Shown piece by piece: positions 58,075 to 63,735 of a DNA stretch of 64,000 nt. Below the pieces are notes generated by a model, which did no database searches, was not told where the DNA came from, and saw only the letters and a list, made by a program, of their open reading frames with translations. The DNA lies in NCBI GenBank assembly GCA_963737265.1, contig CAVTRY010000018.1, positions 96,001 through 160,000 of the forward strand. The letters run 5' to 3'. Position numbers and translations under genes: made by a program. Each line of letters starts with the position of its first letter. The stretch's first letter is position 1. This DNA comes from an uncultured delta proteobacterium. GTDB taxonomy: Bacteria > Myxococcota_A > Polyangia > Fen-1088.

Positions 58075-58990
58075 TCATGACTGGGCGGCCTGGGCTTGGG
58101 TGTGAGGCCAGAGGGCGAGCCAGGCCCCCGGGTTGTAGAAGGCAACCCTGAGCGCGACCATGGCTTCAAGGCCGACCTCGCTCCAGAGCATGCCGCCTTG
58201 CTTGCAGCGCCGGCCGACGAGGCGCTTGTTGGTGCTTTCGATGGCGGCACTGGCCAGCGGATAGCCGGCAGCATGGTATGCGGGGTAGTCCATCATGTGC
58301 TTGTGGCGGCTCAGGTAGCCGGTCAAGTCGTCGAGGGCTTTGACCGCTTGGCTGCCGGTGGAGCGCTGCCGCTCTTGGGCGAGGCCCGAGAGCACCTGGT
58401 CGACCTTGCCGTCCATGATGGCCTCGGTACGTGGCAAGACCCAAGATGGCACTGCTTTCTTGTCCGGCACGACCTTGTGACCTGCCTCCCAGACATGCTG
58501 CTTGGCGTGCTGGCAGTCGAGGATGCCAAGCAACGGCTGGTCGCAGAAGATCTCGTCGCTGTGCTCGATGAAGTAAGCGCCACCGTCGGAGACACGGACT
58601 ACCTTCTGGCGAGACAGCACGCCCTGGGTCGTGGCGGCGGCGTGCAGCTTGTGCCAAAAGCCGTCTCGGTCGTTGAGTGTTGCGACGTAGCGCCGGTCCA
58701 GCAAGACGCCTCGGCCGGGGCTCTCCTCGCAGGCGTGTTCCCCGAGGTAGGTCAGTCCCATGCACACCTCGCGGCCGGCGACCCGTGGTGAGCGCCCGGT
58801 GGGCCCCATGGGCGAGCCAGCGACCTCGGACAGGGTACTCGGCGCCTGATGGCGAAGGGCACGTTCGCCGGTCTCGCTGACCGCTGCCGACTGTGTGGCG
58901 TTCGGGACCGCAGACGGCGCCTTCGCCTCGTCGGTCGCTTTGCGCCGTGGCTCTTGTCCTGGTTTCCAGGTCAGGACGTGAACACCGTCG
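58075..58990 (-). mobile_element. ISKra4/UPF0236-type transposase, N-terminus missing
   Basis: DGVHV, SDGG, LDCQHA, MDY..GYPLASAAIES..GMLWS; the 5' part is replaced by the repeat array. Confidence 0.8.
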
Positions 58991-59405
58991 GTTCCCGGTT
59001 CCCCGGTCCGAGGGTCGTTCGCGCCTGGTTCGGTTCCCGGTCCGAGGGTCGGGTTCCCGGTTCCCTGGTTCCCGGTCCGAGGGTCATGCATGGGTTCCCG
59101 GTCCGAGGGTCGTTCGCGGGAAACGAACAACGGATCGCAGTTCCGGTTCCGGTTCCCGGTCCGAGGGTCGTTCGCGGGAAACGAACAACGGATCGCGGTT
59201 CCGGTTCCGGTTCCCGGTCCGAGGGTCGTTCGCGGGAAACGAACAACGGATCGGGCAGTCGCACGAGCCGTGGTTCGGTGGTTCCGGTCCGAGGGTCGTT
59301 CGCGGGAAACGAAACAACGGATCGGGCAGTCGCACGAGCCGTTTGGTTCCGGTCCGAGGGTCGTTCGCGGGAAACGAACAACGGATCGGGCAGTCGCACG
59401 AGCCG
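58990..59405 (+). repeat. left REP-like irregular array (8 copies of GGTCCGAGGGTC)
   Basis: Five copies extend to GTTCGCGGGAAACGAACAACGGATCG; linkers are GGTTCC(C) iterations. Confidence 0.92.
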
Positions 59406-59555
59406 CGGGCCCGGAGCAACATTCCGGTGCTACGGTGAGGCCTCCAGAATCGACAAGCAGCGATCACACGGCAAGATCTGAAGACAGAGAGGGGCCTTGT
59501 GATGTTACAAGCGGGGGCGGGGGACCGCGATTTTCATTCGATGGGGAGGCACCAG

Positions 59556-60510
59556 TTAGGCGGCGCCAGGCTCCAAGGGCGGGCGGAGGATCGCTTGCTC
59601 GACAGCTTCGGCGGCATCGCAGGCGACCTTGCCGAACTTGCGCATCCAGTAGGTGCCGAAGGGAAACACGATGTTCGCCAAACCAGCCATGTGACCCAGG
59701 AAGGCATCCCGGTATCTCTCAATGAAGCCTCGGTTGCGCAGGAGCGCCTCGATACGCGCCCACTTGTTCTTCGCGGCCACGCGCGGGCTCATCTGAAATC
59801 GTGGTGCATGGCTCTGTGGACAGTGAAAAGGATTCTGCTCTAGGATTCGGTCCCGTCCGAGCACGGTGATGCCCTTGGCGACCCGCCGCCGCTGGCGATG
59901 GTCTGCTTCCTCGGCGCGAACGCTTTCGGTAACGAGGCTGGCCCATTCGCGCTGATCGAGGTGCTGATAGCCCCGTGGCCGCGCGATGGGTAGGCTGGCG
60001 ATTTCGGGCAAGTCGCCGTCGTCGCGAAAGAAATGCTTCGGCCGCGTCGCGGCGAGTTGGCCGCCCGAAATGGTGGCCTGGAACGTGGCGACGCCAGGCC
60101 ATTCCTCGACGGTGTCGACCAGAATCCGCGGCGGTCGGATTGGTGAAAGCGTAGGTCATCTTGTCGAGGATGTCGTTGGGCTCGACCAGATGAACGACGG
60201 AGGTCGGCTCCGATGACCAGAAGCCTTCGTAGCGGCCAAGATAGGCGTTTTGGCAGCGAGCGAGTAGGCCGTGAAAATGTTCGATGAAGACGGGGAAGTT
60301 GCCATCGGGGTCGTGGATGCCGGTGTGGTGGTGGTTCGAGAGAGCCACCGAGAAGGTGACCTCCACCTTGGCCCGCCTGGCGGCCAAGGCCAGGCAGTAG
60401 ATGAAGGCATTGTTGGTGTCTTCATCCGGGCGCAGGAAGAAGCGCCGCTCGGAACAGCGGCGGGTAATCATGTAGTCACGGCCGGGCACGACCTGGCGAG
60501 GGAGGGTCAT
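59556..60510 (-). CDS. RAYT-type HUH (Y1) transposase (frameshift near 60125)
   Basis: PRQVVPG..ITRRC, SNHHH HUH motif, FW, YAFTNP catalytic Tyr, EEWPG. Confidence 0.85.
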
Positions 60511-60755
60511 GCATGGGTTCTCGGAAACGGCAGCAGAAAGTTGCGAGGGAAAGTACCCTCGGGGTGGATTTGAGGGAAAGTACCCTCGGAGGGGGATTTC
60601 GGGAGGGGGATTTCGGAAAGTACCCTCGGAGGGGGATTTTTCATCCGGGCGCAGGAAGAAGCGCCGCTCGGAACAGCGGCGGGTAATCATGTAGTCACGG
60701 CCGGGCACGACCTGGCGAGGGAGGGTCATGCATGGGTTCTCGGAAACGGCAGCAG
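60421..60755. repeat. 116-bp duplication of the RAYT 5' end (60421-60536 and 60640-60755) separated by three array units
   Basis: Identical sequence; in-frame repeat of MTLPRQ..LRPDE. Confidence 0.92.
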
Positions 60756-60868
60756 CTGCTGAGCGACAATTACATCTCCCCAAAGACGACAGCTACGTCG
60801 CCCCGCTTTGAGGCGCGACGGTGACCGTGAGGTAGACCTCCAAGCCCGCAAGCGGGCAGGAGGCACCT

Positions 60869-62369
60869 TTGAAGCCGGTCACCGACGCCCAAGTGAGGCG
60901 TTTGATGGAAGAGATGAGCAAGATTGGAAAAGTAGGCCAGGCCGCCATGAAGGCGGGCATGGACCGGAAGACAGGGCGGCGATACATCGCTGCGGGCAAG
61001 CTACCGTCGGAGCTACGGCAGCCGCGGTGGTGGCGGACGCGCCCTGACGCGTTCGCCGAGGACTGGCCAGCCGTGGCCAAGTTGCTGGAGGAAACGCCTG
61101 GGCTGGAGGCTCAGACGGTGCTGGAGCTGCTGGAGGCGAAGCAGCCAGGGCGGTACAACGAGAGCCATCTTCGGACAATGCAGCGGCGAATCCGTCGCTG
61201 GCGGGCCGAGCATGGTCCTGCGCGTGAGATTTGGTTCACGCAGGCGCATCGGCCCGGTGAAGCCGCGCAAACCGACTTCACGTCGACGGCGGAGCTTGGT
61301 GTGACGATCGTGGGCCAGCTATTTGTGCACCTTTTGTGCGTGACGGTGCTGCCGTACTCGAACTGGCAATGGGCGACCGCGTGTCTGTCGGAGTCTCTGG
61401 CAGCGCTTCGGCGAGGGATCCAGTCGGCGCTGTTCCAGCTTGGGCGGGTGCCGCGATACCACCAAACCGACCACTCGACGGCGGCGACACATCAGATCGC
61501 TCGCGATGCGGAAGATCGCACTTTCAACGATGAATACAAGGCGGTCATGCGGCACCTCGGAATGGAGCCACGAACTACAGCCGTCGGGGCCAAGGAACAA
61601 AACGGCGATGTGGAGGCCAGCAACGGCGCGCTCAAGCGTCGGCTTGAACAAGCGTTGCTGGTGCGTGGCAGCCGCGACTTCGCGGACCAAGACGACTACG
61701 AACGCTTCGTAGCCAAGGTGGTCCGCAAAGCCAACGCTTCGCGAGGCCCGCGCGTCGCCGAGGAGATCGAAGCCATGCGGCCGCTGGTGGTGGAGCGTTT
61801 GCCGGAGTACGCAGAAATGACGGCACCTGTGGCGTCGACGAGCACCATCCGGGTCAAGTCGTGCGCCTACTCGGTGCCGTCGAGGCTGATCGGCGCACGG
61901 GTGAGAGTCCGCGTGTTCGAGCACCGAATCGAGGTGTACTACGCCGACAACTTGGAATTGGCCTGCGACAGGCTGCGAGGCAAGACCGCGCGCATCGACT
62001 ACCGGCACGTCATCTGGTCTTTGGTGCGCAAGCCGGGCGCGTTTTCTCGCTACGTCTACCGAGAAGAGCTGTTTCCAAGCGTGACTTTCAGGCGGGCATA
62101 CGACGCGATCCAGGCGACCAAGCCTGGAATCAAAGGCGACGTTGAATACCTGCGCATTCTTCACCTGGCCGCCAGCACGATGGAAGCCGATGTCGAGCAA
62201 GCGCTCACGACTCTGCTTGCCGATGGGACCATCTTGACGGCGGATGCAACCAAGAAGAGATGCACACAGGCGACGGACAGTACCTATCCACCGAGCGTCC
62301 CCGCGCTCGAAGCACCGCTGGTCGATCTCCGCGTCCTACGACCTGCTCCTCGAACAGGTGGCATCATGA
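60869..62369 (+). CDS. istA: IS21 transposase (extra base near 62330 fuses it to istB)
   Basis: MDRKT HTH, QTDF, TDH, NGDVE, YSVPSRLIG. Confidence 0.92.
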
Positions 62370-63214
62370 CCAACGTCTCCGTAGACACGGTCAAGCCGAG
62401 CGCGCTCGACGCTCTGCTGGTGCTTCTGCGCGCGCTCAAGCTGCCTGCCTTCACCCGGCACGCCGAGGAGATCGCGATCAAGGCCAGCCGCGAGGGGTGG
62501 ACCTTCAGCCAATACCTCCAGCACCTGGCCGAACTGGAAATCGAAGAGCGCCGAACCCGTCGCATCGATCGCGCGCTTCGCGATTCGGACCTTCCCACGG
62601 AGAAAACCCTGGCCACCCTGGAACGTGGTCGGCTGTCACCCAAGGTGATGAAGCAGATGGCGAGCCTGTGTGAGGGTGGCTTTGTCGAACGTGGGGAGAA
62701 CCTGCTCGTCTTCGGACTGCCCGGCCGAGGCAAAAGTCACGTTGTGGCTGCCATCGGCCACGAACTCATCCGGCGCGGCTACCGGGTCCTCTTCACGCCG
62801 ACCTTCGCGCTTGTCCAGAGGCTGCTGGCCGCCAAGCGCGACCTTCGCCTGGAACGAGAACTGGCCGCGCTCGACATCTATCACGCCGTGATCCTCGACG
62901 ACATCGGCTACGTCCAGCAGAGCCGCGATGAAATGGAGGTCCTTTTCACCTTCCTGGCCGAGCGGTACGAACGCAAGAGCGTCCTCATCACCAGCAACCT
63001 GGTCTTCAGCGATTGGATCCGCATTTTCAAGGATCCCATGACCACCGCCGCCGCCATCGACCGACTGGTCCACCACGCGGTCATCCTTGAGATGACCGGC
63101 CCCAGCTACCGCAGCGAAGAAGCACGAAAGAGAGGCGTCACCACCCCAGCGACAACTACGACAACTACCGATCAACCAACGACAACTACCCCCGACAACA
63201 ATGGGGCGATGTAA
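62366..63214 (+). CDS. istB: IS21 helper ATPase
   Basis: GLPGRGKS, LDDIGY, ERYE, ITSN, IDRLVHH, GPSYR. Confidence 0.95.
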   Translation: MTNVSVDTVKPSALDALLVLLRALKLPAFTRHAEEIAIKASREGWTFSQYLQHLAELEIEERRTRRIDRALRDSDLPTEKTLATLERGRLSPKVMKQMASLCEGGFVERGENLLVFGLPGRGKSHVVAAIGHELIRRGYRVLFTPTFALVQRLLAAKRDLRLERELAALDIYHAVILDDIGYVQQSRDEMEVLFTFLAERYERKSVLITSNLVFSDWIRIFKDPMTTAAAIDRLVHHAVILEMTGPSYRSEEARKRGVTTPATTTTTTDQPTTTTPDNNGAM

Positions 63215-63267
63215 TTGACGTCACCGGGTGAATGTAGTTGACGTCCAGCAGCAGCAGAAAGTTGCGA

Positions 63268-63687
63268 GGGAAAGTACCCTCGGAGGGGGATTTTCCGGAG
63301 GGGGATTCGGGGAGGGGGATTCGGGAAAGTACCCTCGGAGGGGGATTTGGGATTTGGGATTTCGGAGGGGGATTTCGGAAAGTACCCTCGGAGGGGGATT
63401 TCCAAGAGGGGGATTCGGGAAAGTACCCTCGGAGGGGGATTTCGGGAGGGGGATTTCGGAGAGGGGAAAGTACCCTCGGAGGGGGATTTCAGGGGGAAAG
63501 TACCCTCGGAGGGGGATTTCGGAGGGGGATTTCGGAAAGTACCCTCGGAGGGGGATTTCAGGGGGATTTCTCAAGAGGGGGATTCGGGAAAGTACCCTCG
63601 GAGGGGGATTTCGAGCGGGAAAGTACCCTCGGAGGGGGATTTCGAGGGGAAAGTACCCTCGGAGGTGGATTTCCGAGGGGGATTTCC
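63268..63687 (-). repeat. right REP-like irregular array (10 copies of GGAAAGTACCCTCGGA on the + strand)
   Basis: Units GGAAAGTACCCTCGGAGGGGGATTT interspersed with partial GAGGGGGATTTC iterations. Confidence 0.95.
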
Positions 63688-63705
63688 ACAGCCTTGATTC
63701 ATCCA

Positions 63706-63735
63706 TTGACTCCTTTGCCCTTGATCCTCTACACT
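63706..63735 (+). promoter_or_regulatory. possible sigma70 promoter
   Basis: TTGACT-N18-TACACT. Confidence 0.3.

Follow-up and report, generated by a model that had tools for sequence, protein, structure and literature searches.

We describe a mobile element whose two ends are lined with partial copies of themselves, and in which copies of the same kind have reached into the transposase gene that it carries. The element lies in a 64,000-nucleotide (nt) stretch of contig CAVTRY010000018.1 (assembly GCA_963737265.1, positions 96,001 to 160,000; hereafter the window) from the 6.55-Mb genome of an uncultured delta proteobacterium, a soil myxobacterium, and its gene encodes a predicted tyrosine (HUH/Y1) transposase. 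At both ends the copies have a fixed start and a variable end, the point at which they restart is the terminus of the element, and the pattern recurs at other loci that carry Y1/HUH genes of the same family. The best reading of these arrays, to which we give a probability of roughly 45%, is that the enzyme cut at the terminus, that a short stretch was then copied inward, and that the strands were rejoined.

The gene-reaching event in the window was recognized by a repeat search as an exact direct repeat of 116 nt, present in two copies that are 100% identical (60421-60536 and 60640-60755) and spaced 219 nt from start to start; exactness over this length excludes a chance origin. On the minus strand each copy reads from the leader, ctgctgccgtttccgagaaccc, through ATGACC... 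to ...cccggatgaa, with a coding part of 30 codons, MTLPRQVVPGRDYMITRRCSERRFFLRPDE. After the upstream copy the minus strand restarts with aaaatccccctccgagggtactttcc, and a parse against the element's own sequence resolves three restart units, a fourth, variant unit, a second leader and then the full gene. The offset of 219 nt is a multiple of three, and a single 354-amino-acid frame in the list of open reading frames (59719..60783) spans both copies. These results bear out an earlier, sequence-only reading of the window, which had claimed that the 5' end of the gene is duplicated in frame at an offset of 219 bp and that the sequence restarts with array units and a second leader ahead of the full gene; it had also described a copied leader, start codon and some 29 codons, of which the leader and start codon stand and the codon count becomes 30. 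Elsewhere in the genome the 116-mer is found just once more, in a paralogue on contig C14 (we number contigs of the source genome with C, and copies of the family in related genomes, metagenome-assembled genomes (MAGs) or metagenome contigs with L). Translation from the upstream ATG would yield a protein with 73 extra N-terminal residues, partly encoded by array units (window 59719-60783).

The arrays were parsed with a copy-from-template Viterbi model, in which each array base is copied from a template T and both jumps and mismatches are penalized; the left template consists of the last unit, the leader and the gene, and T numbers denote positions in it. In the outer left array, 21 of 28 segments begin at T1-T5 (GGAAAATCC...), with segment ends at T10, T13-16, T27-29 and T34, and short fillers (3-9 nt) make up the remaining seven. 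The parse assigns T40-154 to the partial gene copy, or T1-154 once an insertion in its leader is removed, and the segment that follows it begins at T3. The right array is read on the opposite strand, where 14 of its 18 segments begin at T1-T5 of the right-end template (GGTTCCGGTCCGAGGGTCG...) and segments end at T6, 8, 9, 19, 24, 26, 33, 45 and 64. Control parses of reversed upstream sequences gave 0-2 segments per locus. The termini are imperfect inverted repeats with the core TCCGAGGGT, identical at 18 of 23 positions in the window, the right-end terminus mirroring the left end in inverted orientation. Copies begin at a fixed point at either end and proceed inward along the strand that has its 5' end at the terminus; the terminus, the restart point and the place where independent copies of the family start to be alike are one and the same. 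The terminal arrays are mirror-symmetric, and the mirror-image array at the second end is an addition to the sequence-only account. Some units are chimeric: at about 59084-59098 a right-end unit contains a piece, catgcatgaccctc, that is identical to the gene start and is joined via the shared word GACCCTC, and a left-end unit at C14:307540-307575 that includes the first 7 codons skips from T9 to T61.

The extent of the duplicated segment became visible when we excised an IS21-family insertion sequence (IS), with one copy of its direct repeat, from the leader of the upstream copy and aligned this copy and its preceding units with the 219-nt downstream block. Colinearity of the two blocks extends from the junction back to a unit start at about 63401, and their final 141 nt are identical except for one CTG, unlike the paralogues, which diverge by 2.4-8%. 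In their array part the two blocks are set apart by the variant innermost unit and by indels (13, 23 and 4 nt). The event is a tandem duplication of a block made of several units, the leader and 30 codons, with its left edge at a unit start and its right edge after codon 30, rather than the single long array unit that had been claimed, and the small changes in the array came after the block was duplicated.

The IS21-family element, which encodes the IstA transposase and the IstB helper in one 781-amino-acid frame (Pfam, NCBIfam), separates the upstream copy from its array; the earlier reading alluded to an IS without placing it. Its ends are fixed at 60757 and 63250 (TGCTG...CAGCA) by some 20 other full-length copies in the same genome, each at least 99.7% identical, and Logan contigs of higher depth begin exactly at 60757. 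Both of its flanks carry GCAGC, an exact direct repeat of 5 bp (60752-60756 and 63251-63255); alternatively, the repeat can be taken as 8 bp long with 7 positions shared, in which case the leader before insertion equals the second leader exactly. The flanking repeat and the match of the restored leader establish that IS21 landed in the leader of the upstream partial copy later and is separate from the duplication.

A look for similar partial 5' duplications in homologous loci, proposed with the sequence-only reading, brought to light ten cases, in six assemblies, of tandem 5' partial copies with a restart at the terminus. Three other places in the source genome have such copies. C11 and C12 were parsed with loose settings, which produce many spurious short matches in GC-rich DNA, and only long segments were used: C11 reads T7-596, units, T7-269, units and then a full copy, with one internally deleted copy besides, and C12 reads T7-150, 5 nt, T3-119. 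The C11 partial copies differ from their neighbours by substitutions, and these events are therefore not recent. Logan short contigs hold both the C11 junction (60639 joined to 60305 across a single intervening letter, depth 3.5) and that of C12 (a loose end at 60676). In related genomes and named MAGs, 50 copies had enough upstream sequence to be assessed; at three of these loci, which belong to two related genome assemblies, tandem partial copies enter the gene and restart at the terminus (L053, to about +437; L055, to +66; L057, to +45), and leader-only prefixes of 33-65 nt are found at L019, L021 (twice) and L054. More than one protein match was obtained in 6 of 79 metagenome contigs, which comprise four N-terminal partials, one frameshift and one contig with two full copies. 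The partial copy of L093 (residues 1-83) lies directly upstream of a full copy, as does that of L104 (to residue 72), where the contig begins inside the partial; L161 (residues 1-27) has a 229-nt multi-unit block very like that of the window, and in L095 residues 1-25 are followed by 50 unrelated nt and a different element. Partial copies with a restart are consequently present at three of the 79 metagenome loci (L093, L104, L161). Mirror events exist at the right end, with a suffix copy encoding residues 267-313 after a complete right end in L093 and one encoding residues 193-297 after the gene in L019, and right-end stutter is also present in L055, L057 and L058. N-terminal-only fragments seem commoner than C-terminal ones, several of them lying at contig ends, and for this reason we give no ratio. 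Further solo left-end prefixes are found at C12:336332 and on C19; a 6-kb region of C12 (294000-300000) contains at least five solo left-end fragments (T2-66 to T7-150) with unrelated DNA between them, two of which belong to a larger segmental duplication.

The window duplication is a real, recurrent feature. The restart on a unit start (T3), the fact that the units are prefixes of the same template, and the ten parallels together support the proposal that the process that makes the arrays also copied into the gene, tying array growth to the element. Elements without a gene point in the same direction. On C13 (240300-240900) and C23 (212600-213400, minus strand) we found gene-less elements of 110 and 108 nt, two copies per locus, which have the same inverted ends (identical at 17 of 20 and 19 of 21 positions) around a central perfect palindrome. 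They stutter at both ends, with prefix units lying beyond the left end and suffix units beyond the right, and stutter in miniatures that lack the gene indicates a trans-acting factor. The 11-mer core TCCGAGGGTAC occurs 77 times in the genome, against 4.7 expected by chance, in only 16 clusters; the multi-copy clusters are at element, array or miniature loci, and four others are uninspected single hits. This confinement to 16 clusters shows that the core words are not dispersed repetitive extragenic palindromes (REPs).

The positions at which copies stop were collected from abrupt ends of blastn matches, counted only in high-identity matches away from record ends. Ends due to divergence (among them six rows at T437-438 and seven at T185-196), to record ends or to the C16 IS21 at T152 were dropped, as were internal deletions at T85, T89 and, in C11, T188. 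Those kept are T106, 112, 117, 138, 140, 151, 153, 161, 188, 188, 203, 222, 269, 311 and 596. Truncation points thin with distance, eleven of them lying in T106-T203, three in T222-T311 and one at T596, and the unit lengths are strongly skewed to short; limited processivity would produce both. Three independent events fall at T151-153, namely the window junction, a C12 junction and the IS21 insertion in the C16 paralogue, and their position just past a weak hairpin region hints at preferred stops. The junctions of the long events have 0-3 nt of possible microhomology and fillers of 0-6 nt, counted by eye with no chance model, and a run of five A makes the microhomology at the window junction ambiguous. 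These junctions look more like cut-and-rejoin than like homology-driven slippage, and microhomology counted in this way decides neither for nor against template switching. Two candidate explanations of the stops were set aside. Hairpins as stop signals are too weak to build on, the fold z being -2.3 for a hairpin in the gene (7 bp, codons 17-23), which 3 of 200 shuffles equalled, and -1.25 and -0.43 for the hairpins of the left and right ends. The modal unit ends both follow TCC (CTCC and TTCC), but the long prefixes end in unrelated sequence, for which a site-specific second cut cannot account.

Assignment of the enzyme draws on conserved residues and a structural model. Intact paralogues of 315-317 amino acids, one on C14 and two on C11, share 92-100% amino-acid identity, and the genome also contains the window copy, one 60% paralogue and many fragments. 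The window gene carries one extra base near 60123 that shifts the frame and is missing from a 390-nt Logan contig that otherwise differs at one position only; an error of the assembly or variation between strains may explain the frameshift. When 26 family members (36-100% identity to the query) are aligned, the HUH histidines H60 and H62 of an SNH(H/Y)H motif are invariant in all 26, as are Y120 and N124 of a Y-x-x-x-N motif, with Y120, the predicted catalytic tyrosine, placed in helix 111-122 of the model; a C-terminal domain of about 170 amino acids has several invariant residues as well. The AlphaFold model (mean pLDDT 76) was compared with the PDB by Foldseek, which gave as the top match 4er8_A, the Escherichia coli REP-associated tyrosine transposase (RAYT) with its REP hairpin (E 1.4e-4, TM 0.71 on the target; root-mean-square deviation 2.9 over 152 columns), followed by the ISDra2, IS608 and IS200 transposases (E 0.006-0.08). 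A sequence search of the PDB with the transposase gave a chance match alone (E 0.63), and in Pfam no family matched it at E <= 10, PF01797 included, nor was there a Pfam match for the 351-amino-acid neighbour or for the broken gene halves of the window. NCBIfam model NF047646 (REP_Tyr_transpos) matches weakly over residues 5-138 (E 8e-8, 32.3 bits against a cutoff of 80). Relatives are present in 25 of 41 related genomes, the window's own included; the named records are Myxococcota MAGs (Polyangia, Nannocystales and others), and close relatives are labelled in their sources 'REP element-mobilizing transposase RayT' or 'putative transposase'. The leaders of 50 family copies keep the words GCAAC and CCGA(G/A)AA even at about 50% protein identity, and a third word, TCCGAG, is found in codons 20-21 in the close subfamily; all three may be binding sites.

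In the reaction that we propose, the transposase would cut a single strand, the inward-reading one, at a fixed point immediately outside either end (5' of its first terminal base), staying on the 5' end of the element and leaving a free 3'-OH on the flank. A host polymerase would extend this 3'-OH inward for a variable and usually short distance, displacing the old strand. Reversal of the enzyme bond, or end-joining by the host, would then link the displaced 5' end to the new 3' end. The following round of replication would leave one daughter with an extra tandem prefix of the terminus; repeated cycles would build arrays at both ends, and a cut at an outlying unit followed by a long extension would give a block that comprises several units together with the leader and 30 codons. 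What we infer from the pattern is where the cut falls, that a polymerase acts and the strands are rejoined, and that the agent is the transposase and not a host process. An explanation must account for a boundary fixed at the terminus, inward polarity that changes strand between the two ends, a variable and usually short reach, little homology at the junctions, occasional fillers and action in trans, and a Y1 cut followed by limited inward synthesis and rejoining is the simplest fit to all of these. The Helraiser model, as outlined in the accessible part of its description (PMC4778049), provides a precedent for the cut and priming steps and for copies truncated on the far side.

Several observations weigh against this proposal. 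The cut is placed by a sequence pattern, which makes its position a deduction. Single-stranded DNA is the substrate of known Y1 transposases, and rejoining by known HUH enzymes depends on a specific 3' sequence; the long prefixes described here end in unrelated sequences. The upstream and downstream blocks of the window differ by indels of 13, 23, 4 and 3 nt, and the unit that directly precedes the full gene has a variant sequence (aaatccacccc-gaggg) which differs from that of the three units before it, so that a rule by which each unit copies what follows it requires later changes. Many left-end prefixes run into unrelated DNA with no restart, four or five times on C12 and also on C19 and at L023, L024, L029, L031 and L037, and cutting and recopying alone leaves these unexplained. 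The long right-end duplication of L019 stops 32 nt short of the terminus. Finally, the modal ends at T13-16 and T27-29 and the cluster at T151-153 suggest preferred stops, for which replication stalling induced by hairpins accounts equally well.

Stalling is central to the main rival explanation, template switching during replication without any cleavage, which we regard as doubtful but which has the same geometry as our reading, with a boundary fixed at the block and a variable inner end. In this scheme a polymerase blocked at the terminus by a protein or a hairpin would re-anneal its 3' end inside the element and recopy, repeated stalls giving prefix arrays and a long back-jump giving the gene-containing block. 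The preferred ends at T13-16 and T27-29 lie within or past short palindromes, and events cluster around the 7-bp hairpin of codons 17-23 (z = -2.3, 3 of 200 shuffles), which is flanked by the truncation ends T106-117, T138-140 and T151-153. The chimeric units were joined via shared words, GACCCTC at about 59084-59098 and, in C14, CCC joining T9 to T61, and the window junction itself shares GAA if the A run is read one base shorter. Yet most long-event junctions share only 0-2 nt and some have fillers, and the hairpins of the left and right ends are not significantly stable (z = -1.25 and -0.43). Moreover, the pattern follows the terminus across subfamilies whose ends differ (AAATCCCC, GATCACCCC, CACAACCCG, CTGTTACCG, TCGATCCCG), which makes it hard to blame a single slippery sequence.

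Head-to-tail insertion beside a resident end, followed by deletions up to the next terminus that leave prefixes behind, is less parsimonious and in our view improbable. The element is multi-copy, with three intact copies and that of the window, L098 has two full copies 1.7 kb apart, and deletions adjoining the ends do exist, as in an ISKra4-like copy cut at the right array and in prefixes that stand before unrelated DNA. However, every unit would require a deletion stopping exactly at the next terminus, and nearly complete deletions, about 1.1 kb long, would be needed each time for units of 7-30 nt. The run of units ahead of the partial copy, furthermore, matches the run ahead of the full copy both in the window and in L161, which fits a local block duplication and not an independent insertion, and the window copies are identical over 141 nt, against 2.4-8% divergence between paralogues. 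Least probable is an assembly artefact in which haplotypes with and without IS21 were merged and the 5' region shown twice. In its favour, no Logan short contig from four soil-metagenome runs spans both copies (60641/60640), the exact junction 34-mer has 0 matches in JGI metagenome contigs, and the blocks differ, as alleles might, only by small indels in the hypervariable array part. Against it, the junction sits on a unit start and like junctions exist at loci with diverged copies (the C11 copies; copy 1 and copy 2 of L093), in independent assemblies and, for C11 and C12, in Logan short contigs.

The features of the locus are listed in Table 1. The last unit of the outer left array continues into the leader that IS21 interrupts. 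With the copy in the window, the genome has 21 full-length IS21 copies of at least 99.7% identity, plus several fragments, and three full-length copies sit in tyrosine-transposase elements: in the leader of the window, in a left-end array on C11 (C11:682051-684544) and in the C16 paralogue (C16:268414-270905), where the insertion at T152 is 1-2 nt from two duplication junctions. Three insertions in elements that make up about 0.2% of the genome by rough estimate suggest that IS21 has a target preference for them. On the other side of the locus, an ISKra4-like IS is truncated exactly at the outer edge of the right-end array. Ten other copies are about 1.78 kb long, and the missing first 843 bp were not found elsewhere on the contig; the truncation looks like a deletion adjoining the element end rather than a simple insertion.

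Table 1. Features of the transposase locus, in window coordinates.
Feature	Position	Strand	Remarks
Outer left-end array	63256..63706	-	About 21 variable-length prefixes of the left-end template (GGAAAATCCCCCTCCGAGGGTACTTTCCCTCGCAAC...) and short fillers
IS21-family element	60757..63250	+	Inserted in the leader of the upstream partial copy
Upstream 116-nt copy	60640..60755	-	Leader remainder, start codon (60729) and 30 codons; parsed as T40-154
Restart units	60572..60640	-	60640-60615 (T3-28), 60614-60602 (T3-15), 60601-60572 (T2-31)
Innermost left-end unit and start of second leader	60537..60571	-	Variant unit, aaatccaccccgagggtac...; 6-bp hairpin CGAGGG-TACTTT-CCCTCG (fold z = -1.25, not significant)
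Downstream 116-nt copy	60421..60536	-	Continues into the full gene
Full-length gene, predicted Y1/HUH transposase	59556..60510	-	Frames 59719..60783 and 59556..60011
3' untranslated part and innermost right end	59345..59555	+	Right-end template starts at 59345 (GGTTCCGGTCCGAGGGTCGTTCG...)
Right-end array	58990..59344	+	Prefixes of the right-end template, i.e. suffix units on the gene strand
ISKra4-like IS, 3' 940 bp	58075..58989	-	NCBIfam and comparison with 10 other copies

The sequence-only reading had called the gene a RAYT. That name holds for the nearest fold, a RAYT being the best structural match of the N-terminal 150 amino acids, and the NCBIfam RAYT model does match, if weakly; inverted repeats flank the gene, and repeats cluster beside it. 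In other respects the name fails: PF01797 has no hit at E <= 10, the NCBIfam score is 32 bits against a cutoff of 80, and the repeats fall into only 16 clusters, the multi-copy ones at element, array or miniature loci, instead of tens to hundreds of dispersed sites. The units are not palindromes headed by GTAG, as RAYT REPs are, and their inverted repeats are predicted to form only weak hairpins. Copy number differs too, since this gene is multi-copy in the manner of an IS, whereas RAYT genes are typically single copy per genome, according to the accessible part of Bertels et al. (2017, PMC5581495).

Compared by published description, the element fits the TIRYT/TIRtron type better than RAYT, and from its sequence it fits a mobile element of the tyrosine (Y1/HUH) transposase type flanked by terminal inverted repeats (TIRs). 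In the accessible text of Di Nocera et al. (2013, PMC3733652) and Quentin et al. (2018, PMC6006769), TIRYTs are longer, RAYT-related Y1/HUH enzymes with conserved HUH and tyrosine residues, flanked by TIRs instead of GTAG REPs, and their TIR families are of moderate size and 'organized in dimers or clusters'. The gene described here is likewise flanked by long TIRs without GTAG (18 of 23 positions in the window, 14 of 17 from the very first base in L093, 17 of 20 and 19 of 21 in the miniatures), and its length of 316 amino acids, against 165 for 4er8_A, and conserved C-terminal domain are in line with TIRYTs. Its terminal GGGGGATTT and GGGGATC (outward strand) do not, by eye, fit GGGGWSAS, a motif found in many TIRYT TIRs; others are unrelated to it, so it is not obligatory (PMC3733652, accessible part). 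Nested terminal prefix arrays, gene-reaching copies and array-bearing miniatures are not described in the accessible parts of the two TIRYT papers (PMC3733652, PMC6006769).

Elements of the IS200/IS605 group (IS608, ISDra2) share the catalytic fold and the chemistry class. At their left end, cleavage leaves the enzyme on the 5' end of the element and the 3'-OH on the flank. In contrast to the element studied here, with its TIRs, lack of a Pfam match and extra conserved C-terminal domain of about 170 amino acids, they have no TIRs, have both their subterminal hairpins and their two cuts on one strand and match Pfam Y1_Tnp, and we know of no terminal prefix arrays in them. Rolling-circle HUH transposons, such as IS91, offer another comparison. 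In Helraiser the HUH enzyme nicks the left end, a 5'-phosphotyrosine forms and the donor 3'-OH primes synthesis, and truncated copies keep the left end and gain new 3' ends, as stated in the accessible part of PMC4778049. The enzymes of rolling-circle transposons differ from ours in having a helicase or two tyrosines, and their elements in having asymmetric ends; the truncated Helraiser copies in that same part of the source (PMC4778049) are dispersed instead of stacked in tandem at the donor end. The full-text literature that was searched, with subscription journals and supplementary files outside its scope, contained no description of nested terminal prefix arrays or of array-borne partial copies of a transposase gene. 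It is tempting, if tentative, to suppose that the arrays record an undescribed HUH/Y1 reaction, an abortive, rolling-circle-like initiation from both TIR ends that would also make clusters of REPs or bacterial interspersed mosaic elements (BIMEs) grow and would at times duplicate or truncate the transposase gene.

How enzymes of the RAYT and TIRYT types move and multiply short repeats, and how gene-adjacent clusters form, has been an open question since these enzymes were described, as has the growth of REP clusters for RAYTs. Existing models of RAYT-type repeat movement, in the accessible part of Nunvar et al. (2010, PMC2817692), are diagrams only. The arrays reported here are readable scars, with a start fixed at the terminus, inward polarity on opposite strands and lengths from 6 nt to about 600 nt, and they are present in gene-less miniatures as well. 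These scars predict an exact cut site and strand and a polymerase-dependent step, and they account for the 5' gene fragments that litter these loci and for the frequent assembly breaks there. If our reading is true, the same reaction would be the long-sought route by which REP/BIME-like clusters grow beside tyrosine transposase genes, and the restart that reaches into the gene may show how this class of enzymes cuts and recopies DNA.

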